Of a stretch of 64,000 bases of DNA, positions 30,816 through 52,008 are shown one piece after another. Positions within the stretch are counted from its first letter, which is position 1. Every line of letters starts with the position of its first letter. Below the pieces are notes generated by a model. The model searched no databases, was not told where the DNA came from, and saw nothing but the letters and a program-made list of their open reading frames with translations. The translations under genes and the position numbers were made by a program. Source of the DNA: Candidatus Dormiibacterota bacterium (lineage in GTDB: Bacteria > Chloroflexota > Dormibacteria > Aeolococcales > Aeolococcaceae); contig CAVPXI010000014.1 in the NCBI GenBank assembly GCA_963709585.1, forward strand, positions 128,001 to 192,000, read 5' to 3'.

Positions 30816-31011
30816 TCCCTTATGGTATAAAGGAAACCGGAGCGAGAGGGATTCGAACCCTCGATGCCGGTTTACCCGGCATACCGCATTTCCAGAAAGC
30901 GGATGTGGCCTGACCGGCCCCGTCTGGGACCGTCTCCTGAATACAAACAGCACGTTCGCGCCGTCAGGATCTGACTGGTCGTGACTCCCGGTTGGCATCG
31001 GCGTTGGCATC
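30816..31011 (-). mobile_element. att junction J1: tRNA-Ser(GGA) 3' fragment (30838-30895) plus arm region
   Basis: Reverse complement CTGGAAA TGCGG, variable arm, GAGGG TTCGAAT CCCTC TCGCTCCG; GTTGGCATC repeated at 30991 and 31003. Confidence 0.85.
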
Positions 31012-31037
31012 AAGCCGGGTGTCCATCGCAATCGCGG

Positions 31038-33595
31038 TCATTGGAACCAGCCGTCGACGTCGAGCGCGGCGTTGATGTTGCCCGCGGCGTTGAAGAGGTT
31101 GACGTCACCGACATGCGCGCCTGAGGCCAGGCCCACGACCACCAGGTTGGGCAAGGCGATGCCCGGGTTCACGTTGAGGTCCGAGACGTTTGGCTTCGGG
31201 CTCGCATCGGCCGGGTAGACCGTGAGATAGGTGGGCTGGCCGCCGCTCACCGCGGTGAGCGTGGCGATGATCGCCACCGGCCCGCTCCCTGGGATCCCGT
31301 CGACACCGGCAACGGTCACGAGCAGGGTCCCACCCGAGGTCAACTGGTGCCCCGAGCACAGGGTGCCGGTCCCGCTTCGGGTGTCGCAGATCCGGGTCGG
31401 CCCGATCGCCTGATACTGCGCCCCGGTCGGTGGACTGCCCGTCGTCGACCCGAACCAGCCGCTCGCGTCCAGGACCACGTTGATGGAGCCGGCCGCGTTG
31501 TACACGCACACATCGGTGCCCGGTCCACCGCTGTGGCTGGGGCCGAGGGGCACCATCACCCGGTTGGCCAACGCCTCGCCCGCCGAGACGTTGATGGTCG
31601 ACGAGGCGGGCACGCTGGTCAGACAGCTGCCGTTGCTCTGGGTCGGGAAGACACTCAACCAGGTGGCTTGGGTTCCTGCCACCGCGGTCAGGTTGAGCAC
31701 CGCCGCCCCGGCGCTGCCATTGGTCGGGATGCTCGCCGGCGTGCCGCTCACCCCGGTCGGGATGTCGGTGACATTTACGCGCATTACCTGACCGGAGCCC
31801 AGCCTGTTGTCGGTGCTCTGTCCCAGGTTGCAGCCGTTGGCCGGCTGCTTGGCACGGGTGTCGCAGACCCGCAGCGGCGCGATCGCATGGAACTCCCCCG
31901 CCGGGTTGCTCGACGCCTGGGGCACGAAATACCCCTCGACGTCAGCCACGACGTTGAGCGTGCCCAGGGCGTTGTAGATGTTGACCTCACGCTGGGCGTC
32001 GGAGACGCCGTCCTGGCCGAGCGCGACCGTGACCAGGTTGGCGATGTTCTCGTGGGCGCTGAAGTTGAGGTTCGAGGCCAGCGGCCGTCCGGTCCCATTC
32101 GGATAGACGGTGAGCAGGCTCGGTGCCGAGCCGTTGACGGCGACCAGGTTGAGCACCACAGCGGTCGCATTGGCCGGCACGGATTCACCGGTGCGCGCAT
32201 CCGTGTACCCAGTGATCTGGAGGGCAAGCGTCTGGCCTGCCCCGAGCGCGCCACAGGTGTGGATCCCGCAGAGCCCGGAGCGCGTGTCCAGGATCCGGAA
32301 TGGGGCGACCGGGACGAAGCTGCCCAGCCCCGTATAGATGTAGCTGGCGGCGGCGGTTGGAGTGCTGACGCCCAGGCTCGTGGTGACCACGAGCCGGTCG
32401 TATCCCGCCGGCTTGGCCGGGGTTGCAAAGGAAAACGAATACAGGGTCCTGTTCGTCGTCGTGACCGGGGTGCCTCCGAAGGTTGCGGTCATGCCCGAGA
32501 TGAACCGTATCCGTTTGCGGTGACGATCTGGCCGCCGCTCGTCGGGCCGGCCTCCGGGGACAGTGCGGTCACCACCGCTGCGCCGTAGTAGAGGTACGCG
32601 TCCGCTGGAGAAAGCGGACTCGAAACGCCCTGGCGATTGACCTGGACGGCCGCACTTCCAGCGGGGCGAACGGGAGAGACGAAACTGAAGGAGGTAGCGG
32701 TGACCGCGGTCGGGGTGACCTTAGTGCCGCCAATGCTTGCCGTCAAACCCGGCCCAAAACCAATCCCACGCACGGTGACAATCTGTCCGCCCGAAATCGG
32801 TCCGATGTTGGGACTGAGCGAGTTCACTCGCAGCGCTGGACCTACCGCGACTGCCATCCCATGAAAGCTGGAGATCATCCGTGTGAACTGGGACTCTGTG
32901 TACGTGTAGCGGATTCCGCTGTGATCTTCGAGGATCGTGACGTTATGGCCAGGGTCGGCGCCAACCACCACGATTGCATGATCGTAAGGGCTGTAGGGAA
33001 TGGTCTTTCCGTCGAAGGCCGTGTACGAACTGGTTGGATAGCCCGTACCGCCGGTCCCCAGGCTCCGCGTATCTATCCAGATGACCACTGGGTTACCGTC
33101 CAGAATCTGAGCTTCGATCTGTTGCGTCGTATAGCCGGTGCCAGCAAACGCAACCGTCGCCCCGGCCTCCTCGGCAATAGCGGCGATCGGCGCATAGTAG
33201 ACGCCGTAGCCGGTGTAATTCGCTTCAGAACCATACACGCTGCCGACAAAGGCTTTGAAGGCGTCACCCCAATACCGAACGCCGTTCTTGACGTGCGACG
33301 CCCGACCATCCTTGGGCAGTAAGTTGAACACCCAGTTCTGGAGTGGAATCCCGCCTGTGTTGACCTTTATGCCACGAATCGCGAGCGCCGCGGCCAACGA
33401 TGCCGATTCGCAGTCCAACGGCAGGTCCATCTTGATCGTGAAACCGGGATCCAGTTGAACCCCTCCGGAGGCGGCGGCTGGGGTCGATTGCCCTAGAAAC
33501 ATGAGCGATCCCATTGCAAGACCAACCACGGCCGTCCCTAATCGGATCCAGTGGCGGGGTGACGGATCGGCGATCGCAGGCGAGACGCGAGTCAT
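31038..33595 (-). CDS. Secreted C39-like peptidase + IPT/TIG + three 'RILDTR'-type surface repeats (frameshift at ~32500)
   Basis: DCESASL...HAIVVVG; IPT (SPNIGPISGGQIVTVRG); RILDTR/RVCDTR/RICDTR repeats ending in DVxGxF-like motifs. Confidence 0.75.
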
Positions 33596-33954
33596 GCGCG
33601 AACGCCTCCCGGCTTCAACGCTCGCATACCAATCAGCCTCCGGCTTCTCTCGGTTCTTCGTCTCGAGACAGTTCGCTTGTCGGGCTCGATAAGCGTGATC
33701 ACCACATGTCGCGTTCTTGCGCGGCACTTCCATCGCCTATCACCGATCCAAGTCGCAGCAATATTTGTAGTAGGCCCAAAGGTCCCAGAAAAGTGCTATT
33801 GGTCACCCGGCGAAAACTGCCTCGATCGCGCCCTCCCTCATGCAAGTGTTCATTCCGGGAGCCAGGATGGTTAAGTCACCGGCGCGAGACTGCGGATGGC
33901 CAGTCCGCCGAATAGCGAACGACTACGCAGTCACTCTGCGTCGACGTTCCGTGA

Positions 33955-34082
33955 CTTGTCATCACCGTTGGGCATCGCCGCCGCTTTGCCGAGTTCTAGG
34001 CAGCACGCCGCCTGGGTGATGGGCGATGTCGATAATCCCTATCCCATAAGAGCAACGCGGAGCGAGAGGGATTCGAACCCTC
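33955..34082 (-). mobile_element. att junction J2: truncated tRNA-Ser 3' fragment (34058-34082) with left arm only
   Basis: CGGAGCGAGAGGGATTCGAACCCTC, identical to J1; CTTGTCATC/GTTGGGCATC pair at 33955 and 33967. Confidence 0.75.
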
Positions 34083-34276
34083 AAACTTGCGCGCTGGGGT
34101 GGCACGCGACGCTGTATCGTGGACGCGCATCAGAGCATTGGAACTCTGGCACAGGCCCGTCAGGGGCGTCCTGCCGCCGTCGGAAGATGCAGCGCCAGCG
34201 TAACCTCCGCGCGACCAGCCATCTCGGCGTGCCCACCATGCTTGGTGGGTGTGCTCAGTTGGAAGGCGTCTCAGCG

Positions 34277-36778
34277 GTGGATCTGACCACTGAGCGAGGG
34301 TTCCGTGCCGTCGACATGATCAGTCGGGCCAGGGATGCCCAAGAACTCATCGACGCTGTCCTTCAGGGCCTTACATCGCATGGTCTGCGAGGCTCGTGGG
34401 GCACGCTCCGTGGTGATGAGGTGGTCATGGCCGGCGTCGCGGTGCCTGACGATGACACCGCGCGCATCGAGGAGATACTTCGGGTCCCGCTCGGATCGAT
34501 GCGCTTCCAATTGGCAGCCTACGCATCGTTCGCAACGGCCGTGCGCCGGCGCACCACAACCATCGAGGAAGCGTTCCCGCACCGGATGATCTCGATGTTT
34601 CCGAATCTCACCGACGCAGAAAGGGCCGCAGTCCGGAAGCACCTGGGTCCTGGCCCGTTGATGGTCGCGCCCATCACCGACGACGACACGATCCTCGGTG
34701 TACTCCTTGCATGGGGTCCGGGCGTGGCATCGAAGAGACGTGTGGTCGAGAGTCTGGCGACGCTGGCGGGATTGGCATGGCACAGGGTGCAAGCACCCAC
34801 GGGGGCGGTTCGCGCACCCGACAAGAGGAGCGTCTTCCCGACCGGTGAGCTCGCGAACGCCATCGCCGAGCTCCTCTCCCCCGGCACCATGCGCGCAGCG
34901 CTCCAGCCCGTTGTCCGTCTACGGGATCGCACCGTGCTGGGCTACGAGGCACTCTGCCGCTTCACACCGCGTGGTGGCTTACGGACGCCTGACGACCTGT
35001 TCGCGGCCGTCATCATCACCGGCCAGAAGCTCGACGTCGACGCTGCCTGCTTGACCGCGGCGTTCGCCGCCGGGACCCAAACGCCGCCGGCTACCCTCTT
35101 CGTCAACGTTGCCGTGGAGACGCTGGTCGAAGGAAGCCCGGCTGGAGACCGCCTCTCGCGCATGACCGAGACTGCGGGAGTTGCTCCGGAAAACGTCGTC
35201 CTCGAAGTGAGCGAACGCACTCCGATCGGCGATCTCACGCGCTTGCGACAAGTCGTCGCTGAGCTGCGCGCACGCGGCTTTCGCATTGCCATCGATGATG
35301 CCGGCGCGGGCCACGCCAGCATGCTCGTTATCGCCGAGGTGCAACCCGAGTTCATCAAGATCGACCGGGAGCTGATCCATGGGATTGACGTCAGCGCCGC
35401 ACGGCGTGCGTTGGCGGTCTCGCTGCTCTCCTTCGGGGCGCATATCAACGCTCGTGTCATCGCAGAGGGTATCGAAACCGACGATGAGCTCCAGACGCTA
35501 CTGAGCCTGGGTGTTCAATTCGGCCAGGGGTGGCTCCTCGGCCGCCCCGTAATGGTCGCGCCGCCGCTGGATGCGACCAGCGTGGTGGCCGTCACGTCCG
35601 ATTGGTTCAAGGAGCAGCGCACCGCCTCGTTCAGAACCGTGGTCCTCGAGGTATCGCCTAACCACCTCGATGGCCGCAAGCCGGCAGCGCTTGAACCCAC
35701 TGGAAAACGGTCTGCTCTGCCCCGCGCCCTTATCAATGCCGCTGCGGCGCTCCAGTCGGAGCACGACCCAGCCGGCATTCTGCGGGTCATCGCTGAGCAG
35801 CTGCCATCCGTTGTCCCTGTTGACGCTGTCTATATCTATGCCGCCGACGAGAGTGACAACAGGTTCCTCCCGGTCTATGCCACGGGGAGCGAGGCCAAAG
35901 CGCGGATGGCATACGGCTACTCCATGGATCTGGGCGTGAATGGGTGGGCATTCAAGCTTGGAATACCGCAGTACGTGAAGGATGTCAGCGCACACCCTGC
36001 GACGATCACGATTCCTGGAACGCCCGTTGGCGAGGCCGAGTCGTACCTCATCATCCCCCTCATCGCTGGGGATCGGCGGCTGGGTGTGCTCGACTGCAGC
36101 CGGCTGGGCACCAATCGATTTACGAGCCGCGACTTGGAGGCAGCAGCGCTATTCGGTCACACGGCGGCTGCCGCATGGCGCAATGCTGAGCTCCACGCGG
36201 AGCTGACCGAGCGCGCCATCTTGGACCCTTTGACGGGTCTCCTTAACAGTCGATGGCTTCGCGAGGTCGGCGAGCGCGAAGTGTCTCAGAGTCTTCGCAG
36301 TGGTCAGTCGCTTGCGGTCCTGGTGCTCGACCTCGACCGGTTTAAGCAGATCAACGATACCGGGGGGCACAGTGCGGGTGACCTCGTGTTGCGCCGGGTG
36401 GGCACTGTGCTCACCGGCATGATTCGCGCCGGTGATGCAGCGGTACAACTCGGCGGCGAAGAATTCCTCATCGTTCTCCGTGATACCGACACGGCAGGTG
36501 CCGAACGGGTGGCGGCGGAGTTTCGCGATCGGCTCGCAGCAGTTCCTCTCCCCCGGAGCTGTCTGCCTCGCCGCAAGCTCACGGCTTCTGCTGGCGTCGC
36601 CGTGCTTCCTCAGAATGGGAGCGGCCTCTCCGAGTTGGTGAGGGCTGCGGATGTGGCCATGTATGAGGCAAAGCGCGCAGGTGGTGATCGGCACCAACTC
36701 AGTTCCCACCGCCCAAACAACCGGCCATCAGTGCGACACAACGGCAAGATCGCTGCTGCGGCTGTCTTGCCCCGCTGA
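34277..36778 (+). CDS. EAL-GAF-GGDEF cyclic-di-GMP enzyme
   Basis: GYEALCR, IDDAGAG, IAEGIET, a GAF domain, DPLTGLLN, LGGEEF. Confidence 0.88.
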   Translation: MDLTTERGFRAVDMISRARDAQELIDAVLQGLTSHGLRGSWGTLRGDEVVMAGVAVPDDDTARIEEILRVPLGSMRFQLAAYASFATAVRRRTTTIEEAFPHRMISMFPNLTDAERAAVRKHLGPGPLMVAPITDDDTILGVLLAWGPGVASKRRVVESLATLAGLAWHRVQAPTGAVRAPDKRSVFPTGELANAIAELLSPGTMRAALQPVVRLRDRTVLGYEALCRFTPRGGLRTPDDLFAAVIITGQKLDVDAACLTAAFAAGTQTPPATLFVNVAVETLVEGSPAGDRLSRMTETAGVAPENVVLEVSERTPIGDLTRLRQVVAELRARGFRIAIDDAGAGHASMLVIAEVQPEFIKIDRELIHGIDVSAARRALAVSLLSFGAHINARVIAEGIETDDELQTLLSLGVQFGQGWLLGRPVMVAPPLDATSVVAVTSDWFKEQRTASFRTVVLEVSPNHLDGRKPAALEPTGKRSALPRALINAAAALQSEHDPAGILRVIAEQLPSVVPVDAVYIYAADESDNRFLPVYATGSEAKARMAYGYSMDLGVNGWAFKLGIPQYVKDVSAHPATITIPGTPVGEAESYLIIPLIAGDRRLGVLDCSRLGTNRFTSRDLEAAALFGHTAAAAWRNAELHAELTERAILDPLTGLLNSRWLREVGEREVSQSLRSGQSLAVLVLDLDRFKQINDTGGHSAGDLVLRRVGTVLTGMIRAGDAAVQLGGEEFLIVLRDTDTAGAERVAAEFRDRLAAVPLPRSCLPRRKLTASAGVAVLPQNGSGLSELVRAADVAMYEAKRAGGDRHQLSSHRPNNRPSVRHNGKIAAAAVLPR

Positions 36779-36836
36779 TCTGACCAGGACGAACGAGGGA
36801 ACCCCACTCGGGGGATTCTCACCAGTATCCTCTTCC

Positions 36837-36900
36837 ATGCGCGTCCTAGTTCTCGGCGCGGGGTTTGGTGGTCTGGACAGCTGCGAACTCCTGAGCAACT
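36837..36900 (+). pseudogene. N-terminal remnant of an FAD-dependent oxidoreductase (SQR/Ndh-like)
   Basis: MRVLVLGAGFGGL, then similarity is lost just before the J3 arm. Confidence 0.55.
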
Positions 36901-36925
36901 TCACCCGTGCCGGATGGCTCAAGCC

Positions 36926-37187
36926 GTTGGGACTTCACTGGGACTCAGACACCATTGGGCGCGAGTAGGTCGCGCCGTTTGATAAGGCGAAGTTCCTTAT
37001 ATTGCAATGGAAAACCGGAGCGAGAGGGATTCGAACCCACGTGGCGGGTTACCCCACCAACCGCATTTTCAGAGCGTCTGAGCGGGGTGCACGGAGGGGC
37101 ATACGGGGGCACTCCGTATTCGAAATCGAAATGGAAAGGGCACCGCGGGGCAGGCGCGGGCAACCGCGTTGGGTCTCCGTTGGGTCT
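36926..37187 (-). mobile_element. att junction J3: tRNA-Ser 3' fragment (37016-37072) with both arms
   Basis: Core as in J1 but loop CTGAAAA; GTTGGGACT/CTGGGACT on the left; GTTGGGTCT at 37168 and 37179. Confidence 0.87.
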
Positions 37188-37243
37188 GGGATTAGGGGCA
37201 TTTCGTCCCTGGGGACTCCGGAGCTTAGAGGTTCTGGACGTTC

Positions 37244-37984
37244 TTATCCAGGTCGGTCTGACGTCCGCGCGCTTGACGCGTGCCGGGGGTCGGGGTTAGG
37301 GTCCAGTTCGGCCAAGTCGTCCGCGAGTTGGAGCGTTTCCTCTACATGTCGCTGCGTCAGGTCGGCCGCAGTCGGGATGTCGCGCGCTGCCAGCGCGGCA
37401 GCGATCCGACTGTGGCCAACACGGCTCGTCCTGCGCAGTCCACGATCGCGCAACACGATGGCTCGGTAGCGATCAGTTCGTGTCCACAGCTGCTCCAACA
37501 GATCAGCAAGAACTTCGTTGTGCGAGGCCGCATAGATGGACAGATGAAAGTCACGATGAGCGCGAAGCTGCGCGTGCAGGTCTCCGGCGTGTGACTGCCG
37601 CGCTAGCGCTGAGATCTCTCTGAGTTCTCGTGGGGTGGCTGATTCTGCGGCCAGGCTGGCAGCGAGCGGCTCAAGCCGCACGCGCGCAACGCACAACTCG
37701 CCGAGTTCGCGCCGCGTCAGGGGTAGGACGCTCACAACCCGGTGTGGGCGAAGCGCGATCAGCCCCTCGCCCTCGAGACGACGCAAGGCCTCGCGAAGCG
37801 GAGTGACAGACAGGCCCAGAGCGTTGGCGAGGCTCTCCTGGTTTATCGTCGATCCCGGAGCGAGCGTCCCCTCAAGTATCTGCGCCCGAACCTCGACATA
37901 GGCTGCTTCGGCCTTGGTCAGAGCAATAAGGGGAACCCTTGTATACGGCGACGAAATGGCCACCCTACGCTCCACGTCTTTCAT
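37244..37984 (-). CDS. GntR family regulator (FCD)
   Basis: LGLSVTPLREALRRLEGEGLI; HRDFHLSIY. Confidence 0.88.
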   Translation of the reverse strand: MKDVERRVAISSPYTRVPLIALTKAEAAYVEVRAQILEGTLAPGSTINQESLANALGLSVTPLREALRRLEGEGLIALRPHRVVSVLPLTRRELGELCVARVRLEPLAASLAAESATPRELREISALARQSHAGDLHAQLRAHRDFHLSIYAASHNEVLADLLEQLWTRTDRYRAIVLRDRGLRRTSRVGHSRIAAALAARDIPTAADLTQRHVEETLQLADDLAELDPNPDPRHASSARTSDRPG

Positions 37985-38066
37985 CTCCGAGCAACTGTTT
38001 ACACGAGCGTCGACGCTGGTGCGCTACCAGTCTATTCTCGCTCGGAGGTCCCATCGACCGATGACC

Positions 38067-39546
38067 TCACCGTCCAATGCCCTCCGCGCCCCTCCCCTGC
38101 CAAGGCCCCAGGTACTCAGCGAGCTCCGTCGCCACGGCCACGACCTGCGAATCGTGATAGGGGCGTCCGATGACCTGCACGCCCACTGGGAGCCCCTCAT
38201 CAGACTGGCCGCACGGAACAACCACGGTCGGAGCTCTGAGTAGCGTCACAACCCGACAGCAGCTCTCGATTTGAACTCCGTACAGGGTGTGTCGACCGAC
38301 CGTGAACTCGTCGGATCGCGGCGCAAAGGCTGGCACCGAGGCTACTGGCATGAGCAGAATCGGCCACTGCGCCATAAACCGATTGACCCGCAGTCGAATT
38401 TCGTCAGCTAAAGCGGTCAACCTTTGGAATTCCGTAAGTGTGCCTTCAGGACGAGACTCGGCCAGCCACCCGCGAACGTAGTCTGTCAATTCATCCTCGC
38501 GGCCCTGCCACAGACGTTTGTGGTCGGCGAGACCATCGAGGTTGCGGAGCGCGCGGTAGACGGACTCTGCCTCGTCCAGACCCGGCGGCCGCCGTTTGAT
38601 AACCCGAGCACCGCGATCAGCCAGCCCTTGGGCGGCGCGCTCGACCACCTTGACCACATCGGCGCGAACCGGGTGGCTACCGTCCCCGTCGCACCAGGCG
38701 ACGCCGACGCCGGCGGTGCTCTGACCCGCCGGTGATCCAAGTGGCACCGGCACGGCGTTGCCATCGACCCCATCGGGACCGGCCATCACCCCCAACAGCA
38801 CCCAGAGATCACGTATCGAGCGAGCAATCGGCGCAATCGTCTGCAGGCGCGCTTGCATCGATGCACTGTTTGGTGGAACCGGTGATGGAGAGGCTTCAAA
38901 AGGGAGTTGCCCGGTTCCCGGGACGATGCCAGGTGTTGGGCGAAGGGAGACCAGCCCAGTGCAATGGGCGGGTAGTCGAATGGACCCTCCGTAGTCAGTG
39001 CCAATGCCAAAGCCGACCATGTGGGCGCCCACCGCAGCCGCATCGCCACCGCTTGATCCTCCAGGGGAAAGTCGGTGGTCAAGAGGATTCAGAGTGTCCC
39101 CGAAAAGACGATTTCCGGTGTGGATTGCGAGCCCAAATTCGGGGCAGTTTGCCTTTCCAAGAAGAACGGCTCCGGCCGCGCTGAGACGCTCGACGGCTGT
39201 GGAGCCCCAGGGGGACGCGAAATCGCGCAAGATCAGGCTTCCGGCGGTGGCACGCACATCGCGTGTCGCGATGAGATCTTTGACCGTAAATGGGACACCG
39301 GCTAGCGGTCCCGGGTCGACGCCCCGAGCCGTCGCATCGTCGATAGATCTCGCCTGCTCCATCGCTCGATCATCAAGGCGCGTAACGATCGCATTTAAGA
39401 TTGGGTTGCTCGAACTCGACCTGCTCAATATGGGCGGTCAGTACCTCGACGGCGCTGATTTGGCGACGTTTGACACGCGCTGCAATCTCGACTGCCGACC
39501 AATCGACTGGCGATCCGTCGGCGCCGTCAGTGGGTGTCCGCATCAT
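38067..39546 (-). CDS. Amidase signature enzyme (frameshift at ~39414)
   Basis: GVPFTVKD, PGGSSGG, GTDYGGSIRLPA, GLPVGVQVIG. Confidence 0.9.
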
Positions 39547-39596
39547 CGCCCCCAGCAACCGCGAGACACCGCGAGTCGGGAATCGTCACCAGGTAT

Positions 39597-40322: not shown

Positions 40323-40348
40323 CGTGCCTCTCCTTGTCGATCCGTTCT

Positions 40349-42919: not shown

Positions 42920-43182
42920 GAGATGCGCCCTCCAGGATCTTATGGACTATGACCTACATAGTAGAGATCTAGCCGAGGGTGGTCAAGGCACCCGCTCCAG
43001 CTTCGAAGGGCTACGTGTTGCAGCGTCTGTTGAGCGACGGTCGGCTGACGGCAGCGAAGGCGAGTGCTATTGCTCGGTCTCCTCCAGGCTAGTAGCTCCG
43101 AGACCGCCGATCGGCTCGTGACCCACGATCGGTGATGCCCTTCACCGTTTCGTAAGGGTGCCCAGGTACAAGTAGAGCCGTC

Positions 43183-43869: not shown

Positions 43870-44357
43870 CCTTGCGTCCGAGCCGCTCCATCCGGCAGCT
43901 GGCTCGCTTCCGTGGGCTGGCTTCGCACGAACGCAACGTGCCGCGCTCAGTGCGACGGCGTCAGAGCCATGAAGCATCCCGAACCGCCTGAACCTTGGCC
44001 TGACGGTGTCGATGTCGTGGTTCTCCCAGGGCCACATGCGTACTTCGAGGGATGCTTCGCCGCGGGTGCTGCAGGTCTGAGATCCGCGCCCACGCCGACC
44101 AACGGCGCGCTCAGCCGCGCTCTGCCCGAGCGCTCGTCATTCCGCCGTCAGAATCGTGGCATACCATCGGTACAATGGGCATAGGGCAGGGCCGTGGCGC
44201 CGGCAAACGGTCGCGATCTCGGCGCCGAGGCTCCTCCAGCCGCGCGGCGCCTGGCTCGCGCGACGAAACGACCAATCAGCGTGGTGAACGTGCCGAGCCG
44301 TCGACCGACCGCGACGGCGCATCCGCCCTGGGGGTAGCCGACGGTGCCGGCATAGTC

Positions 44358-45758
44358 GTGGCGATCCCTCCCATGCGTGCGGGCGCGCAAGCGACCGCCG
44401 CCGTCCGGCGCTCGCTCCGCGTTCCTCGTTCCTGGGGACTCCGGCCCACCGACGTCACGTTGATTGTGTTCGCCAACGCCGCGCTGATCGTCGCCATGTG
44501 GGTGCGTCACGGGCAGATGCCCAACCTGGGCAACGCTGGCGCGGTGCTGTCCGCGGCTGGTCAAGTCACTGCCCTGCTTGGCACGTATTCGGCGATAGTC
44601 CAAGTGGTGCTGATGTCACGGAGCCCGTGGCTGGACCAGCTCTTCGGCATCGACCGTATCGCCGGGTGGCATCGCTGGCTGGGATTCGCCACTGTCTTCC
44701 TGATTTGTGGACACGTGGTCTTCACGACGGCCGGCTACGCCGTTAGCAATGGCCACTCCTTTCTTTCTGAGACGTGGACCTTCCTCACCACCTACCCCTA
44801 CATGCTGATGGCCTATGTCGCCACCGCACTGTTCGTCCTCATTGCCGTGGCCTCGGTCCGGGCAGCCCGGCGTCAACTCTCCTACGACAGCTGGCACTTC
44901 ATCCATCTCTTCATCTACCTGGCGATTGCGCTTAGCTTTGGTCACCAGCTCGCCGTCGGCACCGACTTCGAGCGTGACCCCGCCGCGATCACCTACTGGG
45001 TGGCGCTCTACGTCGTCGCCGCACTGCTCGTCCTCAGCTTCCGGGTGCTCATCCCCGCCCGCCTCACGATGCGTCACCGGCTTCGGGTTCGCGCCGTGGT
45101 TGAGGAGGCGCCAGGGGTCATCTCCATCTACATCACCGGCCGCGACCTCGCCGACCTGCCCATGCGCGCCGGTCAGTTCTTCAAGTTCCGCTTCCTGGCT
45201 CGGGGGATCTGGTGGCGGGTCCACCCGTTCTCGCTGTCCGCCGCCCCCAATGGTGAGTACCTGCGCATCACCGTGAAGCAACTCGGCGGCTTCACCAAAG
45301 CGGTGCGCAGCCTGCAGCCGGGGACCCCGGTGATCGTGGAGGGCCCGTACGGGATCTTCACCTCGCTGCGTCGCCGTCGCCCGCGGGCATTGCTCATCGC
45401 GGGGGGCATCGGCATCACCCCCCTCAGGGCTCTCCTCGAAGAAATGCCGCAGCGCAAAAACGGCATCATCCTGCTGTACCGCGCACGGTCGTGGCATGAC
45501 GTCGTTTTCAAGGCCGAACTCGACGAGCTGGTCCGGGCGCGCGGCGGCGAGGTGCACTACATCATCGGTCGACGGGGAACCGAGATCCATCTGAATCCGC
45601 TCGCGCCCAAATACCTGCGCACCGTGGCCCCCGACCTACGCGAGCGAGACGTCTTCGTCTGCGGTCCCAAGGAGATGATCGAGGGTGTTGACGAGAGCTT
45701 GGCATCCCTTGGTGTTCCTGCCGAACAAATCCATCGCGAGCGGTTCGCATTCCTTTGA
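44358..45758 (+). CDS. Ferric reductase-like TM domain plus FAD/NAD-binding oxidoreductase
   Basis: WHRWLG, WHFIHL, HPFSLS, EGPYG, IAGGIGITP, VCGP, IHRERF. Confidence 0.9.
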   Translation: MAIPPMRAGAQATAAVRRSLRVPRSWGLRPTDVTLIVFANAALIVAMWVRHGQMPNLGNAGAVLSAAGQVTALLGTYSAIVQVVLMSRSPWLDQLFGIDRIAGWHRWLGFATVFLICGHVVFTTAGYAVSNGHSFLSETWTFLTTYPYMLMAYVATALFVLIAVASVRAARRQLSYDSWHFIHLFIYLAIALSFGHQLAVGTDFERDPAAITYWVALYVVAALLVLSFRVLIPARLTMRHRLRVRAVVEEAPGVISIYITGRDLADLPMRAGQFFKFRFLARGIWWRVHPFSLSAAPNGEYLRITVKQLGGFTKAVRSLQPGTPVIVEGPYGIFTSLRRRRPRALLIAGGIGITPLRALLEEMPQRKNGIILLYRARSWHDVVFKAELDELVRARGGEVHYIIGRRGTEIHLNPLAPKYLRTVAPDLRERDVFVCGPKEMIEGVDESLASLGVPAEQIHRERFAFL

Positions 45759-45772
45759 CCTGAGGTCCCAAT

Positions 45773-46273
45773 ATGCCCACTCGAGCTGTCGTTACCCTCG
45801 CCGCCACCGTCGTCGGCCTGTTCCTTTTGGTCAGCTTCCGCACTCCGCCGTCCAACACCATTGGCTCGGGGGTGGCGCTCCTCCCCGCGCGGTCGTCGCC
45901 CTCGGCATCGAGCAGTCCGCCAGCAGTCACGCCATCGGGGGCGCCGCCCTCTGGCGGCAGGACCCCGGCGGCGACCGCGGCTCCCACTGCCGCTGGTCTG
46001 AAGGACGGCTCCTTTACCGGCCAGGACTTCCCCAACTTTTACGGCGATGTCCAGGTTCAGATCATCGTTTCAGGGGGCCGGATCACCGACGTCAAAGCGT
46101 TGCAGTATCCGACCGACCGACCTCAGTCCGCGTACATAAGTTCCGTGGCGATCCCCTACCTCCACGACGAGGTGCTCAAGGCTCAGAGCGCGCAGATCGA
46201 CATCATCAGCGGCGCGACATTCACCAGCGACAGCTACGCGCAGTCCCTGCAGTCAGCTTTGGCCCGGGCCTGA
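45773..46273 (+). CDS. Extracytoplasmic FMN-binding protein
   Basis: YGDVQVQI, and the flavinylation motif DIISGATFTS. Confidence 0.88.
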   Translation: MPTRAVVTLAATVVGLFLLVSFRTPPSNTIGSGVALLPARSSPSASSSPPAVTPSGAPPSGGRTPAATAAPTAAGLKDGSFTGQDFPNFYGDVQVQIIVSGGRITDVKALQYPTDRPQSAYISSVAIPYLHDEVLKAQSAQIDIISGATFTSDSYAQSLQSALARA

Positions 46274-46278
46274 GCTGC

Positions 46279-47067
46279 ATGGTGTCTTCCGTCGCTCCGC
46301 CACCGGGGACCGTACGCGCCGAATCCATCATGGGGACGGTGATCACAGTCGATGTGCGCGATATGGGCCTGCCCGGGTCGGCGATGGATGCGGTCTTCGC
46401 GTGGTTCCACGACGTCGACGCAACCTTCAGCACCTTCCGACCCGACAGCGAGATCAGCCGCCTGTCGCGAGGTGAACTCCGCGAGCATGAGTGCTCAGCC
46501 GACGTTCGGGAGGTCCTCGCACTCTGCGAGGAGGTCAGAGTGTGCAGCAATGGCAGCTTCGACATCCGACGGGGTGGCGGGATCGACCCCCTGGGGCTGG
46601 TCAAGGGTTGGTCAGTCGAGCGCGCATCAACAATGCTTGAGGCGGCCGGGGCCCGCAACTTCTTCATCGACGCGGGCGGTGACGTTGTCGTGCGAGGGCG
46701 GCCCGAGCCAGGCCGTACGTGGCGCCTCGGGATACGTCATCCAGAGCAGGCCGATCGCGTCGCCGCGGTGCTCGCGATTCGCGATGTTGCCGTCGCCACG
46801 AGCGGCACCTACGAACGAGGCGCGCACATCGTCGACCCGCGCAGTGGCTCGCCACCTTCCGGGCTCCTGAGCCTGACGGTCGTGGGTCCCAGCCTCACCT
46901 TTGCCGATGCGTACTCCACCGCGGCATTCGTCATGGGCGACCGCGGCGCTCCCTGGGTGGCCGGCATCGACGGGTATGACGCCTTGGCAATCACGACGCA
47001 GCGTCGCACGGTTTGGACGCCTGGTCTGGAGGCGTTGCTCGTGCGGGGCGAAGAGGCGTCCGTCTGA
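46279..47067 (+). CDS. apbE: FAD:protein FMN transferase
   Basis: MGT, FSTFRPDSEISR, DPLGLVKGW, AGGD, VATSGTYERGAHIVDP, ADAYSTA. Confidence 0.9.
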   Translation: MVSSVAPPPGTVRAESIMGTVITVDVRDMGLPGSAMDAVFAWFHDVDATFSTFRPDSEISRLSRGELREHECSADVREVLALCEEVRVCSNGSFDIRRGGGIDPLGLVKGWSVERASTMLEAAGARNFFIDAGGDVVVRGRPEPGRTWRLGIRHPEQADRVAAVLAIRDVAVATSGTYERGAHIVDPRSGSPPSGLLSLTVVGPSLTFADAYSTAAFVMGDRGAPWVAGIDGYDALAITTQRRTVWTPGLEALLVRGEEASV

Positions 47068-47090
47068 GCGTCACCCCCGCATCGGTCACC

Positions 47091-47318
47091 TTGGTCGGAA
47101 CACCGCTTGAGTCGAGGCGACCCAACCGGGCGCCAAAGGGAAATGCGGAGCGAGAGGAATTCGAACCCTCGATACCGCTTGACGCGGTATACCGCATTTC
47201 CAGGCCGTCTGAGCGGGGTGCAGGGTAGGGCACCGACGGGCACTCAGTATTCAGATTCGAAGCGCTTCGTGCACGACAAGGCAGGCGAAGGCACCCGCGT
47301 TGGGTCTGCGTTGGGCCT
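47091..47318 (-). mobile_element. att junction J4: tRNA-Ser 3' fragment (47146-47203)
   Basis: Core ends at CTGGAAA; GTTGGGTCT and GTTGGGCCT at 47299 and 47310. Confidence 0.87.
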
Positions 47319-47480
47319 GGATTTCGGGCCAAGCGGGCGGGATCGAGCGCGTAAGCACCTCAGATGACATGACCTTCGCGTGGCCAAGGGCTAAGGAATG
47401 ACACCCGAGCGGCGATCGCAAATTGCGTTAGTCCCCGCTATTGGGGTAGCCGGCGACGCTAACACGCCGCTACCACGACC

Positions 47481-47777
47481 TCAAAGATCAATCGGCGTCG
47501 GTGAGTGCCTCGGTTGAATCGGGTCGTCGAAGTCGCGTTCGGGGATGAGCCTGTCAACACTTGCCCGAGCCTCGCGTTCAGCCGTCTCAGCGGAGTCCGC
47601 GAAGGTCGGGCTCTTGGATATCGGCTCCCAGAATTCGCCTCGTCTACGAATCGCACTGTGGTAGGTGGAAAGTCGCCACTCCTCAAAACCGAAGCTCCCG
47701 TCCGAGTTCCGGACGATTCTCACTTCGCGCCTGCCGGGGCCGTCCTGGATCGTCTTGACCACCTCCGCCGACCCCAT
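47481..47777 (-). CDS. Hypothetical protein
   Basis: Compact ORF (RREVRIVRNSDGSFGFEEW...FADSAETAEREAR). Confidence 0.5.
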   Translation of the reverse strand: MGSAEVVKTIQDGPGRREVRIVRNSDGSFGFEEWRLSTYHSAIRRRGEFWEPISKSPTFADSAETAEREARASVDRLIPERDFDDPIQPRHSPTPIDL

Positions 47778-47904
47778 ATATCGATTCTAGGAGACGTGTA
47801 AGTGTGAAAGTCCGATAGATGGGCGACACATCATGTGGATGCACGTGCTTGGTCCAAATGCCGTAAGCCGACTTCGGATCGCGGCGAATGAACCCAGCTT
47901 GGGC

Positions 47905-48510
47905 TCATCCGCCGATGGCAAGGGCGAGAAGGGTATTGACCGCAGTCTCGAACGGGCGGGTACTCCGTTGCACCTGGGCGAGTAGGAGTCCTCCTTGGAG
48001 CGTGGCGAGCAGAGTAGTGGCGAGGTCGTCCGGGTCGATCCCCGACGGGAGCTTCCCGTCGGCATGAAGGGATCTAAGTCCATCGCCGATGGCGGCTGCC
48101 CACTGATCGAACCCTGCCGCTATGAGCGCTCGGGCCTCGGGGTCACACTCGGCCAGTTGACCACCGAGCGAGCCAAGTGGGCAACCGCCCTTTGCTTTGG
48201 TGCGCTTCGCTTCGGTGATCACCATCTTCCGCCAGGCTTCGAGTCCGTTCGCGCTGCGGAGCAGCTGCCCCTGGTTATTGACGATGGCGTCGGCTTGGTA
48301 ATCGATGACCGCCTGCACGAGTGCGTTCTTATCGGGAAAGTAGTGGTACATCTGAGAGCCGCTGACGTCCGCCGCCACCTTGACGTCTTCCAAGGTGGTG
48401 CTCGCCACCCCGCGCTCATGGATCAGGGCGGCGGCCTCCTCCACTATTCGTGCCCGGGTGCGCGCTCCCTTGGGGGTGAGCCTCGGCCGGTCACTCATCG
48501 CGTTGACCAT
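47905..48510 (-). CDS. TetR family regulator
   Basis: HTH TTLEDVKVAADVSGSQMYHYFPDK; GGCPLGSL. Confidence 0.9.
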   Translation of the reverse strand: MVNAMSDRPRLTPKGARTRARIVEEAAALIHERGVASTTLEDVKVAADVSGSQMYHYFPDKNALVQAVIDYQADAIVNNQGQLLRSANGLEAWRKMVITEAKRTKAKGGCPLGSLGGQLAECDPEARALIAAGFDQWAAAIGDGLRSLHADGKLPSGIDPDDLATTLLATLQGGLLLAQVQRSTRPFETAVNTLLALAIGG

Positions 48511-48531
48511 GCACCAATGTTAGCAGGATTT

Positions 48532-48580
48532 TGAGTTTGACAACCCAGTCCTGACCTGTCAGAGTGGGTCGCACAACCCA
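48532..48580. promoter_or_regulatory. Two palindromic TetR operators overlapping a TTGACA -35
   Basis: TGAGTTTGACAACCCA (48532) and TGGGTCGCACAACCCA (48565), between divergent tetR and SDR genes. Confidence 0.65.
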
Positions 48581-48606
48581 TTTTGTAGCGACAGGAGGCA
48601 CATCGC

Positions 48607-49357
48607 ATGACTGACCTCAAGGGCAAGACCGCTCTGGTTACGGGCTCGACGAGCGGGATCGGTAAGGCGACAGCCATCGCCTTGGCCGCCCGCGGCGCTC
48701 ACGTACTGGTGGTCGGGCGCAACGAACAACGAGCCAAAGACGTGGTGGCCGAGATCGAAGGCAGCGGAGGCAGCGCAACGTTCCGGCTCACCACGTTGGG
48801 CGATCTGAAATCGGCCCAGGACCTAGTCGAATGGGCCATTGAGGCAGGCGACGATCATGTCGACATCCTCATCAACAACGCTGGTGTCGCCTTGCTCGGA
48901 CCAAGCAACGCAGCCACCGAAGCCGACTTCGACGAGAGCTTTGCAGTCAACGTCAAGGTTCCGTTCTTCCTCGTGGCGTCACTGGCGCCAGCCATGGCCG
49001 AACGCGGATGGGGTTCGATCGTCAACGTCTCCACGATGGTCGCCAGCTTCGGACAGGCAGGCATGGCTCTATATGGCGCCAGCCGAGCGGCTCTCGAACT
49101 GTTGACGAAGGCCTGGGCTGCCGAATACGGCCCGCGTGGTGTTCGGGTCAACGCCGTTGCCCCCGGCCCGACACGGACCCGCACCATGGAAGCAGTCCCT
49201 GAAGAGATGGTGAATCAGCTCGCAGCACTAGCACCAGCAGGTCGCGTAGCTCAGCCCGAGGAACTTGCTGCGGCGATCGTCTTCCTCGCCAGTGATGATG
49301 CCGAGCTTCGTCCACGGCGTCACTCTTGCAGTCGATGGAGGCCGAGTAGCGACGTAA
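48607..49357 (+). CDS. SDR family oxidoreductase (frameshift at ~49301)
   Basis: TGSTSGIG, NNAG, YGASR, VNAVAPG; the corrected end is ASFVHGVTLAVDGGRVAT*. Confidence 0.88.
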
Positions 49358-49431
49358 CGCTTGTCGGCCGCGACGTTCAAGTGCGAAGACATAGAACACA
49401 GATCGCAAACTAACAACTGAGGAGTATCCAC

Positions 49432-49752
49432 ATGAGCGCATACGTAATTGTCGAATTCACGGTCAAAGACCCGGATGTTTATCGTGAGAAATACAGCCGC
49501 AACGCTGGACAGACGGCCAAAGAGCACGGAGGCGAGGCTCTCGCCAACAGTAACTGGGAGATCCTGCATGGCGATGGCTCGCTCACCTCAGGGGCGATCA
49601 TGCGGTTTCCGGACCATGAGGCGGCCGTCAGTTGGTACAACTCGCCTGAATATCAGCGGTTGATCGATGTCCGAAGTGTCGCGATGGATGCCCGTTTCAG
49701 CTTGCTCGACGGCCTCCCTACGCGCACAGAAGATGAGCGTACATCCCAATGA
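49432..49752 (+). CDS. DUF1330 family protein
   Basis: MSAYVIV...HGG...FPDHEAAVSWYNSPEYQ. Confidence 0.88.
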   Translation: MSAYVIVEFTVKDPDVYREKYSRNAGQTAKEHGGEALANSNWEILHGDGSLTSGAIMRFPDHEAAVSWYNSPEYQRLIDVRSVAMDARFSLLDGLPTRTEDERTSQ

Positions 49753-49845
49753 GCGCACTTCCAGGAAAGACGGTGCTCATTACTGGCGCCAACGCCCGGA
49801 TCGGCAAGGATGTGGCCCGGCAACTGGCGTTGCGCTCTCGGGATT
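49749..49845 (+). pseudogene. Truncated SDR, N-terminus only
   Basis: GKTVLITGANARIGKDVARQLA, then similarity ends. Confidence 0.65.
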
Positions 49846-49908
49846 GGCGAGGAGTGAGTCGGTTCGCGTCTGATTGCCGCCAGGCCGCGTTCCAGCCGTC
49901 GGCTCCCG

Positions 49909-50412
49909 TTAGTAGTCCGGTGGGGGTGGCGGCTCGTGCTTAGGTCCATGACCTTTCCGCCCTGGACCGTGCCGCCTCGGCTGTCGCTCCGGCCCGTGTG
50001 GTGGCGGGGCTGGCTGACCCTCCGGGTAATGCTCGTCGTCCATGCCCGTCACCTCGCGGAAGGCCTTGCGCTGGTAGAGGTTGCGCAGGGCCAACTCGGT
50101 GAGCGCCACCCCGTCCCCGTCGCGCCCCGCCCGCCGGACTTCGCGCTCCGTGAGCTCCTTGAGCATCTGTAGGGCGTCCAACGACACTCCGGAGTCGATC
50201 AGACGCTTGGTCAGTCGGGCTACAGCCGTATCCCTGGGCGAATAGCGGAGTTTGCCGTGCTCTCTCGTTGGGCTGATCAGTCCGAGCTCCTCCCAGTAAC
50301 GGAGAACCCGGGCGGTGACCCCGGTGCGTTCGGCCAGCCGTGGGATGGCGACGAGTTCGTCGTCGTTGCCGGTGGTCAGCTGAGGTGGGGTTGGTGGCTG
50401 TAAATCTGCCAT
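49909..50412 (-). CDS. MerR family regulator
   Basis: LAERTGVTARVLRYWEELGLISP. Confidence 0.82.
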   Translation of the reverse strand: MADLQPPTPPQLTTGNDDELVAIPRLAERTGVTARVLRYWEELGLISPTREHGKLRYSPRDTAVARLTKRLIDSGVSLDALQMLKELTEREVRRAGRDGDGVALTELALRNLYQRKAFREVTGMDDEHYPEGQPAPPPHGPERQPRRHGPGRKGHGPKHEPPPPPDY

Positions 50413-50562
50413 GATCGTGTAAGATTATCTCAGGCGACGGCGAGCGTGTTGAGGTCGCCCGAGATCCGCATCAAGGAGTACAGACGCATGAATCTCCAAG
50501 GCGCTCTCGCACGCCCTGTCGCAGCCAAGAGAGGGGACAGAATCTCGGCACATCGCGACCCG

Positions 50563-51588
50563 ATGCGCGTGGGCATCTGGGTGATGGCAACAGGGCTCGT
50601 CGCTGCGGCCATGTTGCTCCGAGGCGGCCGACTCGTCCGGGCGGCTACCACCACCGGACCGCCCTTTCTCACCCTGGCAGTAGTTATCGCGGCGGGGCTC
50701 GCGCTGGACCGTGCCGGGGTCTTCCGGTTCCTCGCCCGGTTGGTCGTTCCCACCTCTGCCACCGACTGGCTGGCAGCAGTTGGGGTACTCGGGTTGACCG
50801 CCGTACTCAGCGGCGTCGTCAACCTCGACGTCGCTGTGGTGGTCGCGGTACCGGTGGCCCTAACGGTAGCCCGGGAGCGGCACCTCAATGCAGGCCGCTT
50901 CGCTATCGCCGCCGCGCTGACGGCCAACGCCACCTCCTTCCTCTTGCCCACGTCCAACCTCACCACCTTGCTCGTCCTGGGTCATGCTCCGCTAACCGCA
51001 TCTACGTACGCCGGCCAGAGCTGGCTGGCCTGGCTACTGGTCACGGCGCTGACCGTTGGCGCTCTCTCAGTACTGGTGAATCGCGGCGGGCAGCGGCCGA
51101 AATCATCGGCGAAGGGCGCGCGTCTCGAGCCATCTGCTCCCAGCCAGGCGTCGACATCGGCGGACGGCCTGCTCACCTACGCGACAACTACCCGACGCAG
51201 CGCCACATTGGCGCTGCTTGATCTGCTGCCCATGTATGCCGGCGCCTCGGCGATCCGAGCACTTCTGGACGGCGGCGTGACCCTGCACGCCGGGCTACTC
51301 GGCGACGTCGGAATAACGAGCGTCTTCGCCGCCAGCGCCAACAACCTGCCTGCCGCGGCCGCCATCCTAGTCACCGGTAGTCTCTCTCGCTGGGCGACAG
51401 TGCTTGCACTGGCAATCGGCCCAAATCTGCTGCTCACCGGCTCGGTGGCGAGCTTGATCGCGCGGCGCATCGCTCGGGATCACGGCACTGACTTCGGTGC
51501 CGTCAGTTTCAGCTTGCTCGGAGCCGCACTGCTTCCCTTCCAACTCCTCCTTGGCGTCGCCGGGCTGCACCTCATGGGGGCAGTCTGA
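50563..51588 (+). CDS. ArsB/NhaD-like (IT superfamily) permease; start uncertain
   Basis: NLDVAVV, ANATSFLLPTSNLTTL, NNLPAA, IGPNLLLTGSVASL. Confidence 0.75.
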   Translation: MRVGIWVMATGLVAAAMLLRGGRLVRAATTTGPPFLTLAVVIAAGLALDRAGVFRFLARLVVPTSATDWLAAVGVLGLTAVLSGVVNLDVAVVVAVPVALTVARERHLNAGRFAIAAALTANATSFLLPTSNLTTLLVLGHAPLTASTYAGQSWLAWLLVTALTVGALSVLVNRGGQRPKSSAKGARLEPSAPSQASTSADGLLTYATTTRRSATLALLDLLPMYAGASAIRALLDGGVTLHAGLLGDVGITSVFAASANNLPAAAAILVTGSLSRWATVLALAIGPNLLLTGSVASLIARRIARDHGTDFGAVSFSLLGAALLPFQLLLGVAGLHLMGAV

Positions 51589-51738
51589 CTGCGACTACAC
51601 GCCATTGAGAGGGTTGAAGGCTCAGGTGTTGACGGCGTTGTCGAGTCGCAACACGCGGGCACGTAGCTCACGGCTCGACACCTAGGACGTGTTCCACTAC
51701 CCGTGGCAACGCAATTGGTGACTGGTGCGACCCATGAC

Positions 51739-52008
51739 GTTGGGTCTGCGTTGGGTTCAGACACCGTTGAGACGTCCGTCTCGCCCGGTGTGGTGAGTAG
51801 GAGGCCGGCAGATATCCCTGATCTCATAAAGGAACGCGGAGCGAGAGGGATTCGAACCCTCGTGGCGGGTTACCCCACCAACCGCGTTTCCAGGTCTCGG
51901 GAGCGCGGTGCAAAGCCGTGCGCCGAAGGGCACCCCGTATTCAGAATCCCGTCGCTGAAAGCACCACGATGCAGGCGAAGGCACCCGCATTGGGACTCCG
52001 TTGGGCCT
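51739..52008 (-). mobile_element. att junction J5: tRNA-Ser 3' fragment (51837-51893) with both arms
   Basis: GTTGGGTCT/GTTGGGTTC at 51739 and 51750; ATTGGGACT/GTTGGGCCT at 51989 and 52000. Confidence 0.88.

Follow-up and report, generated by a model that had tools for sequence, protein, structure and literature searches.

In phage lambda, attP consists of a P arm carrying the P1, P2 and Xis sites, a core, and a P' arm in which sites P'1-P'3 lie beside int. In attP of mycobacteriophage L5, several phased excisionase sites lie between paired outer arm sites and the core. Here we analyze repeats of a similar kind in a stretch of 64 kb from a Candidatus Dormiibacterota bacterium (assembly GCA_963709585.1), positions 128001-192000 of contig 14 (CAVPXI010000014.1), called the window throughout. 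The repeats lie beside displaced 3' pieces of a tRNA-Ser(GGA) gene. Judging from their sequence anatomy, they are probably attP-derived arms with integrase arm sites, standing in an array that has no integrase.

According to the available text of PMC7498355, the sites of recombination directionality factors (RDFs) are direct repeats one helix turn apart. The accessible part of PMC11963761 describes head-to-tail assembly of winged-helix RDFs and of BldC, with one DNA turn per protomer, and it treats, together with the available text of PMC12266134, Xis filament formation in mycobacteriophage L5/Pukovnik. For cis-mobilizable elements (CIMEs), a definition and a three-step accretion model are found in the available portion of PMC5704250.

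Junctions and arms at tRNA-Ser(GGA)

Six 3' pieces of a minus-strand tRNA-Ser(GGA) gene start at window positions 30839 (J1), 34059 (J2), 37017 (J3), 47147 (J4), 51838 (J5) and 60598 (J6); the corresponding tRNA-end pattern is expected 0.00 times by chance in 64 kb. Five of the six pieces are 56-57 nt long and span the tRNA from its 3' end up to where the anticodon loop begins on the 5' side (TTYCAG on the plus strand); over this length they share 73-98% identity with the intact gene. Neither an intact tRNA gene nor a match to an Rfam family was found in the 64-kb window. The intact tRNA-Ser(GGA) gene is located at c234610-234700 of contig 14, which is 46 kb beyond J6 and outside the window. 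The locus is a 76-kb tandem array of integrated-element remnants, and the window holds its first 33 kb. At each internal junction, the tRNA piece separates the inner arm of the cassette to its left from the outer arm of the one to its right. The cassettes, tRNA pieces and outer arms are listed below.

30896..60597, no strand: cassettes E1-E5, 3 to 10 kb each, with cargo genes and no recombinase gene
30839..30895, minus strand: J1, core of the leftmost junction, 57-nt 3' part of tRNA-Ser(GGA), 91% identical to the intact tRNA over 58 nt
30896..31011, plus strand: type-B outer arm of E1, belonging to a family of nine arms; 5-mers CTGAC, CCGTC, CCGTC at 30910, 30920, 30930 and CCGTC, CTGAC, GTGAC at 30961, 30971, 30981; GAATAC at 30939-30944; 9-mers GTTGGCATC at 30991-30999 and 31003-31011
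34059..34082, minus strand: J2, last 24 nt of the tRNA (acceptor and T-arm end), with no arm motifs on its right side
37017..37072, minus strand: J3, 56-nt 3' part of tRNA-Ser(GGA), with a variable arm unlike that of the resident gene
37073..37187, plus strand: type-A outer arm of E3; 5-mers GTGCA, GGGCA, GGGCA at 37087, 37097, 37107 and GGGCA three times at 37138, 37148, 37158; GTATTC at 37116-37121; 9-mers GTTGGGTCT at 37168-37176 and 37179-37187
47147..47203, minus strand: J4, 57-nt 3' part of the tRNA, 98% identical to the intact gene
47204..47318, plus strand: type-A outer arm of E4; GTATTC at 47247-47252; 9-mers at 47299-47307 and 47310-47318; homology with other arms extends to about 47383
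51838..51893, minus strand: J5, 56-nt 3' part of the tRNA
51894..52008, plus strand: type-A outer arm of E5; 5-mers more degenerate, with GCA kept in five of six; GTATTC at 51937-51942; 9-mers ATTGGGACT at 51989-51997 and GTTGGGCCT at 52000-52008
60598..60654, minus strand: J6, 57-nt 3' part of the tRNA, with two mismatches in the 22-nt end pattern
60655..60704, plus strand: truncated type-A outer arm right of J6, of which just the first ~50 nt remain; first 5-mer triplet and GTATTC (60698-60703) kept, second triplet and 9-mers lost

J2 is either a decayed junction or the product of another kind of element. In the four junctions with a full outer arm (J1, J3, J4 and J5), the G that ends the anticodon loop is at 30895, 37072, 47203 and 51893, and the first 9-mer of a paired direct repeat starts at 30991, 37168, 47299 and 51989, that is, at +96 in four of four cases. 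The second 9-mer follows at +107 or +108. The 9-mers are GTTGGGTCT-like and have an 11-bp period in J3, J4 and J5; in J1 they read GTTGGCATC and have a 12-bp period. The pattern of the 9-mer pair matches the window four times, against 0.02 matches expected. Between the loop end and the 9-mers, two triplets of 5-mers occupy +15, +25, +35 and +66, +76, +86; they are of the GTGCA/GGGCA kind in J3-J5 and of the CTGAC/CCGTC/GTGAC kind in J1. We also detected a hexamer at +44, which reads GTATTC in J3-J6 and as its complement, GAATAC, in J1.

The phasing of the 5-mers was assessed by counting identical 3-mers that recur three times at a 10-bp period, in comparison with 2000 dinucleotide shuffles per arm. 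Four such triples occur in the J3 arm, a number reached by 1/2000 shuffles; two occur in the J4 arm (8/2000) and one in the J5 arm (79/2000). The J1 arm has 0 triples in this test, and its phasing taken alone is not significant. Support for it comes from the family only, because exact period-10 triples are present in seven of the nine J1-type arms, all starting at +66 to +68 except for one extra triple at +15 (L061). The original prediction had reported the paired repeats exactly 96 bp past the loop end at these four junctions, with two triplets of motifs at about 10-bp period in between. Every one of its coordinates was reproduced and both triplets were recovered, with the qualification just made for J1; the hexamer had been absent from it.

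The inner arms also carry 9-mers:

33967..33976, plus strand: inner arm left of J2, single type-B-like 9-mer GTTGGGCATC
36926..36965, plus strand: inner arm left of J3, three copies of the type-A arm site, GTTGGGACT, CTGGGACTC, then AGACACC and ATTGGGCGC
51739..51775, plus strand: inner arm of E4 (left of J5), three type-A arm sites, GTTGGGTCT, GTTGGGTTC, then AGACACC and GTTGAGACG
60507..60515, plus strand: inner arm left of J6, single type-B 9-mer ATTGGCATC

In the inner arms of J3, J5 and relatives, two or three copies of the 9-mer are found ~80-100 nt ahead of the tRNA end; the first site in E4 begins 99 nt ahead of the J5 tRNA end. No 5-mers were found in the 9-mer-bearing inner arms. Since E5 combines a type-A outer arm with a type-B inner arm, it is a composite. 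The cassettes differ in what they have kept of their att sites. The outer arm is complete in E1, E3 and E4, and E2 and E6 are left with no usable one. On the inner side, E4 has three sites, E3 a degenerate arm and E1 a single 9-mer.

Two other features were seen on the inner side of the junctions. A short hairpin of the CCCTTAT ... ATAAGGG type lies just beyond the tRNA 3' end (~30812-30836, 34035-34056, 36992-37014, 51813-51835 and 60573-60595). It is present at most junctions and in relatives, is absent at J4 and at the intact gene, and could be part of the site or else a terminator belonging to the inner arm. In relatives (L040, L042, L043, L055 and L059), we found another type of inner arm, which has no 9-mers and in which two TGTCCACGATGTC-like words abut the tRNA end, which points to competition for this tRNA by an additional element family.

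Spacing and conservation in further copies

How typical is the 96-bp spacing? Our genus set consisted of 42 genomes, and a J4-type arm was detected at E <=1e-5 in 16 of them. A J3/J4/J5 profile, run over loci taken from same-genus genomes, gave 42 matches, 26 of them full length. Three of the 26 were dropped (one with Ns, two cut or degenerate at the second repeat), and one arm was counted by hand as 96. Of the 23 type-A arms that were kept, 17 have a spacing of 96 and two a spacing of 94; the values 95, 97, 89 and 87 occur once each. The small changes in length fall mostly in the poorly conserved region from +51 to +65. The 87-bp arm has lost exactly one 10-bp unit of the second triplet and the 89-bp arm 7 bp of the first; the single 10-bp deletion seen, in the L046 arm, corresponds to exactly one 5-mer unit. 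The type-B (J1-type) arms have a spacing of 96 in eight of nine cases and 97 in the other, and all nine have GAATAC at +44. GTATTC is present at +44 in 22/25 type-A arms. In a further type-B arm from another Dormibacteria record, counted by hand, the 9-mer is at +96 and the hexamer one base early.

An independent sample came from metagenome contigs, which were scanned with the 9-mer pair alone and yielded 44 loci. Three of these were excluded as too short upstream and ten as having no loop motif, four of the ten scoring 96 under a stricter pattern. Among the 31 arms with a loop motif, the spacing is 96 in 28, 95 in two and 94 in one; with the stricter core pattern, 26 of 28 have 96. The 96 class contains 17 arms that are distinct at <97% identity, 15 of which are new relative to the genus arms. 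The 9-mer-pair pattern gave 0 matches in viral_contigs, which is evidence neither for nor against a phage origin. On one of the metagenome contigs (L102), a GTTGGGTCT pair abuts the start of a small open reading frame (ORF), whose translation, read by eye, we take to resemble a helix-turn-helix (HTH) excisionase or regulator.

The 96-bp spacing is, in other words, strongly modal and not invariant. The 'invariant' of the original prediction is true of the four full copies in the window; the additional copies mostly agree, with a minority at 87, 89, 94, 95 or 97.

Equal length alone is weak evidence for selection, since the J3, J4 and J5 arms are homologous, with a mutual identity of 74-75% over ~185 nt. 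The arms might be plain scars that are alike through recent descent from one attachment site, their spacing having been inherited and not selected. Such a view would accommodate both the integrase-less array and the existence of decayed copies, but we consider it very unlikely. Arms with identity as low as 60% keep their length: the 17 gap-free type-A arms are 60-94% identical (median 74%). Moreover, substitutions avoid the motifs. Between J3 and its closest relative, 29/115 positions differ, with three of the differences in motifs against 13.6 expected. Across the 17 gap-free arms, the columns holding motifs make up 47% of the alignment and take 16.6% of all pairwise differences, and they average 1.78 bits against 1.09 bits in spacers; these motif columns were partly read off the same alignment, which makes the comparison in part circular, and their coordinates are independently set by the internal repeats of type B. 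The lag-10 autocorrelation of the conservation profile was reached by 0/5000 permutations for the first half of the arm and by 210/5000 for the second. No periodicity was seen in the type-B conservation profile, for which the 8 copies are too alike.

The strongest evidence is that two unalignable arm types have all landmarks at the same coordinates. The original prediction had remarked that the sequence of J1 is unlike that of the others, and indeed the type-A and type-B consensus sequences are identical at 27/95 positions, an agreement we judge to be near chance for this base composition. Yet the six 5-mers, the hexamer and the first 9-mer coincide to the base. Immediately beyond the second 9-mer, either the homology ends or the distance to the next shared word becomes variable (11 to 17 nt). 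The earlier proposal that the geometry is under selection therefore finds support at the level of the attachment-site family, through the bias of differences toward spacers, the coordinate match between types A and B, and the presence on both arms of 9-mers that track the integrase subtype (see below). This conservation could predate deposition at the present locus, having been laid down while the sites rode active elements.

A structured RNA continuing from the tRNA fragment might be suspected from the GC-rich sequence of the arm and from some helices that RNAalifold places there. We find this hardly credible and rejected it, as the RNAalifold covariation is almost solely in the tRNA variable arm and the Rfam search was empty. 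In an alignment of 14 junctions, the tRNA variable arm accounts for four of the six pairs with changes on both sides; the remaining two, in the att arm, show changes in only one and three sequences. The total covariation term amounts to -0.73 kcal/mol.

The two arm types have also been found nested. In relatives (L047, L048, L051, L062 and L064), a conserved partial type-A arm, comprising two GGCA units and degenerate 9-mers, lies ~85 nt past the 9-mers of type-B outer arms. It looks like a fossil of one arm type behind the other.

Integrases and candidate ligands of the motifs

In relatives, integrase genes adjoin the inner arm and read away from the tRNA. Pairs of GTTGGGTCT or ATTGGGACT adjoin two type-A integrases with a mutual identity of 78-80%, and three copies of ATTGGCATC adjoin a type-B integrase, which is 54% identical to the type-A ones. 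An element on contig C4 of the window's own genome encodes an integrase 48-50% identical to types A and B, and GGTGTCA pairs stand on both of its arms. The arm-site word thus tracks the integrase subtype, with three words for three subtypes (48-54% identity between subtypes, 78-80% within type A); this is a correlation only. Given their presence on both arms and their specificity for the type of integrase, the 9-mers are best read as lambda/L5-type arm-type sites of a heterobivalent tyrosine integrase. From the anatomy, the conservation and this co-variation, we infer which protein would bind which motif.

The integrases of relatives and of C4 contain Phage_integrase and SAM_3 domains. In a structural model of a type-A integrase (predicted local distance difference test, pLDDT, 89.1), residues 72-365 match Tn1549 Int with Z 22.6 (root-mean-square deviation 2.5, 275 residues aligned) and lambda Int with Z 18.6. 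The N-terminus is predicted in the model to have the order strand-strand-strand-helix. Type-A integrases at 77-93% identity are common among metagenome proteins. Integrase-bearing elements of 62-73 kb are present in the arrays of relatives G016 and G005, and one type-B relative has a phage capsid gene.

The C4 element is complete, ~8 kb long, and sits at tRNA-Ser(TGA) with a displaced tRNA piece (C4:62979-70928). Its outer arm has GTATTC at +44 and GGTGTCAG pairs at ~+108. An HTH_17 gene occupies 69357-69506 and the integrase gene 69589-70713, with the GGTGTCA pairs before the tRNA. One of its ORFs, read by eye, presumably resembles a mutator-type transposase.

The phased 5-mers are best read as a putative excisionase (RDF) array, although our confidence in this is only about even. 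They are confined to one arm, where they form direct repeats spaced by one turn, inward of the arm-type sites; this matches the published rule and also the head-to-tail assembly of winged-helix RDFs and BldC, with its one turn per protomer. Their sequence varies between two element types found in one host genome, and this speaks against binding by a host protein. Tentatively, the 5-mers may instead be extra low-affinity arm sites of the integrase, or operators of an element regulator at a promoter in the arm, although we think either of these rather unlikely. The 5-mers vary between types A and B just as the 9-mers do, so that any element-encoded protein fits. HTH_17 genes adjoin the C4 and the type-B integrases, but no excisionase gene adjoins the type-A integrases, the nearest HTH_17 genes in relatives being 7 and 10 kb off. 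On the other hand, the 5-mers are missing from inner arms that do bear 9-mers, and one-turn direct repeats between core and arm sites fit the directionality-factor pattern as given in the available text of PMC7498355. As for an operator, the arms abut unrelated cargo genes in different cassettes, which makes an operator of the cargo unlikely. For the hexamer, which recurs in three element types and in both orientations, a role as a bend or host-factor site is conceivable.

The array would have grown by serial integration. Elements would enter by recombination in the anticodon loop, between the tRNA gene and their own attachment site, which would consist of an inner arm, a copy of the tRNA 3' half and an outer arm. 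Successive entries would push older elements away from the gene. Given the minus-strand tRNA, the resulting order would be chromosomal flank, core, outer arm, cassette and inner arm, again core, outer arm and so on, up to a core joined to the tRNA 5' half. The fixed distances would keep the bound proteins in helical register, with the arm folding back on the core as in the lambda and L5 intasomes.

A number of observations weigh against reading the repeats as attP-derived integrase arms, or point to decay. Within 150000-240000 of contig 14 there is no match to Phage_integrase (PF00589), all 11 matches of the genome lying elsewhere, and neither resolvase nor HTH_17 excisionase-type genes were matched on contig 14, including the region from J1 to the intact tRNA. 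No cognate integrase was found in the assembly, which is 88.8% complete and was available except for 8000 withheld bases; the closest candidate, at 48.6% identity, comes from an element whose arm repeats are different. In the genus set, a type-A integrase at >=80% identity is present in 3/42 genomes, compared with type-A arms in 16/42, so most arms stand without their enzyme. Even in the integrase-bearing G005 and G016 the outer arms are damaged: that of G005 has no core, and that of G016 has one unit deleted. Breakage is evident at J2 and J6, and arms that are truncated or have no core were found in relatives. Among public soil runs, which we compared as Logan contigs, a contig of run X4 (record 27) skips 190 bp, 51814-52003, so that the hairpin and the J5 tRNA piece are missing together with the outer arm as far as halfway through the second 9-mer. 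E4 and E5 are thereby fused, a direct example of junction loss by deletion. The N-terminus of the integrase is a candidate arm-binding domain. Pfam gave nothing relevant at E up to 1 for the first 90 residues of three integrases; the N-domain folded alone reached a pLDDT of 67.9 from a 5-row alignment, and with it the best fold-search score was Z 5.6 (AP2 domains 5.0 and 4.4), with no Foldseek match at E <=0.001. The excisionase reading of the 5-mers, for its part, draws on position and analogy.

The original prediction held that these are functional recombination sites and not drifting scars. Selection on the site family bears out the first half of that contrast for the family; the copies in the window are another matter, given the integrase-less array, the decayed J2 and J6, and the loss of the J5 junction in one soil contig.

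Cassette traffic and comparison with known systems

We next consider whether cassettes still move. Relative G033 (L056) is 94-98% identical to window 26001-30895, with the similarity ending exactly at the J1 loop end. Beyond that point it has a J5-type arm that breaks off within the first 9-mer, after which the sequence corresponds to window 54356 onward; E1-E4 are missing. Among relatives, G033 alone has the DNA left of J1, and because no other shares this left flank, the true chromosomal edge of the array is not fixed. In an X2 contig, the J4 core, the arm and the start of E4 are joined to a different left flank. For J3 and L039, homology between the genomes halts exactly at the outer edge of the arm.

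These differences could reflect an active cassette system, in which integrase-less cassettes form a standing pool with a complete attachment site at every internal junction, and in which rare 60-70-kb elements with type-A or type-B integrases excise, reorder and spread cassettes in trans. If this were true, the locus would be a tRNA-anchored integron analogue run by heterobivalent integrases, its layout of 3 + hexamer + 3 + 2 upheld by traffic. E4 and several cassettes in relatives do keep both arms with full motif sets, arrays of close relatives differ exactly at the core (G033) or at the arm edge (J3 and L039), a different left flank is seen in X2, and type-A integrases are, as noted, common in metagenomes. 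We nevertheless regard both the standing pool and its mobilization in trans as unlikely. No robust excision, circle or empty-site junction was found among the soil-run contigs, the assembly has no cognate integrase, and junction loss by plain deletion was seen. RecA recombination between the 56-57-nt tRNA repeats could yield the same array differences. As to present activity, we infer that the window cassettes are CIME-like, having lost integrase and excisionase, and are at best mobile via the enzymes of an incoming related element.

Two joints in the soil-run contigs were considered and not used: one in X1 connects 47319 to 51837, with 22 letters on one side and in repeated sequence, and one in X3 connects 45533 to 55471, with a side of 21 letters and 15 foreign letters. 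Window 60727-62500 has next to no cover in the soil runs, and we drew no conclusion from it.

The content of the cassettes is varied. In Pfam searches, the 52 ORFs of the window and the 43 ORFs between J6 and the intact tRNA gave only cargo, namely regulators and metabolic genes. Cargo of E1-E5 includes a peptidase C39/TIG protein, an EAL-GGDEF protein, GntR, amidase, aminotransferase, ferric reductase, ApbE, TetR, SDR, MerR, a CitMHS transporter, sugar transferase, acetyl-CoA hydrolase, thiolase and adenylate kinase. The last segment of the array (188655-234609 of contig 14, window 60655 onward and mostly outside it) consists of 46 kb of catabolic genes, among them thiamine pyrophosphate (TPP) enzymes, phosphotriesterase, amidases, a peptide ABC transporter, CoA transferases and acyl-CoA dehydrogenases. 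Several of its genes are split or truncated, and no mobility genes were seen in it.

In E1, a 484-aa repeat-rich protein with no Pfam match (31038-32492, minus strand) adjoins the outer arm. Its homologues, at ~79-80% DNA identity, adjoin type-A arms in relatives G010 and G032. Since the E1 arm is of type B, the same neighbor gene accompanies both arm types.

A TetR-SDR-DUF1330 block inside E4 (window 47834-49834) is 92-97% identical to copies in ~16/42 genus genomes; a few further genomes have matches that are shorter or weaker (82-89%). The copies in relatives stand away from their tRNA-Ser(GGA) arrays and the block has sharp ends; some copies adjoin what, reading by eye, we take to be the end of a 5S rRNA gene. 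The sole copy of the present genome is the one inside E4. In the soil runs, the summed contig depth of the block is 200-535, compared with ~14 around it in X1.

Like lambda attP, the sites described here have direct-repeat arm-type sites on both arms, up to three on the integrase side and two on the opposite arm, where other sites in a phased array separate these two from the core. As reported above, the core-binding and catalytic domains of the integrase resemble those of lambda Int. In contrast to lambda, the core is the 3' half of a tRNA gene, six 5-mers are arranged in two triplets around a hexamer in place of three Xis sites together with IHF and Fis sites, the arm-binding fold of the N-terminus is a candidate taken from a model, and the site is known from sequence alone. 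The resemblance to L5/Pukovnik includes the tRNA target, the outer paired arm sites, phased candidate excisionase sites inward of them, and HTH_17 candidates in intact relatives. The host, of Dormibacterota type, and the motifs are different, and the window copies are without int and xis. Among the features of att sites used by heterobivalent integrases, we found the tRNA 3' core, repeated arm sites on both arms and an integrase-specific word; a cognate integrase was not found here and is present in relatives G016 and G005.

As islands, the cassettes resemble CIMEs of the ICESt1/ICESt3 type: integration and transfer genes are lost, att sites are kept, elements are stacked in tandem at one target gene, and integrase-bearing elements of the same specificity are present in the arrays of relatives. 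They differ in that no conjugation genes were seen in the members examined and in their number, six or more here against the usual two or three. Tycheposons of Prochlorococcus, to go by the available text of bioRxiv 10.1101/2020.12.28.424599, have in common with this locus serial integration at tRNA genes, scattered partial tRNAs, degenerated remnants beside rare intact elements, and metabolic cargo. According to the same text their intact elements measure 10-20 kb, against 62-73 kb here, and the lineage and the integrase family are different as well. An integron has an IntI-type integrase, with attI and a promoter, ahead of its attC-bounded cassettes. The present array has no integrase at either end, and its junctions are tRNA pieces with arms of the double-stranded type and not attC hairpins; RNAalifold gave no structure signal for the arms at the 14 junctions.

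The locus is therefore a known kind of island array and not a new kind of system: a 76-kb metabolic block made of stacked element remnants, which bears on how catabolic genes are gained and lost in uncultured soil bacteria. What sets it apart is comparative depth and a coordinate system shared by two types. Dozens of diverged copies with two specificity types in one coordinate system amount to a clean natural experiment on the grammar of attachment sites. They offer, for a phylum without genetics, a testable map of the intasome arm, covering the distances that matter, the pairing of motif and integrase, and the expected position of a directionality factor.

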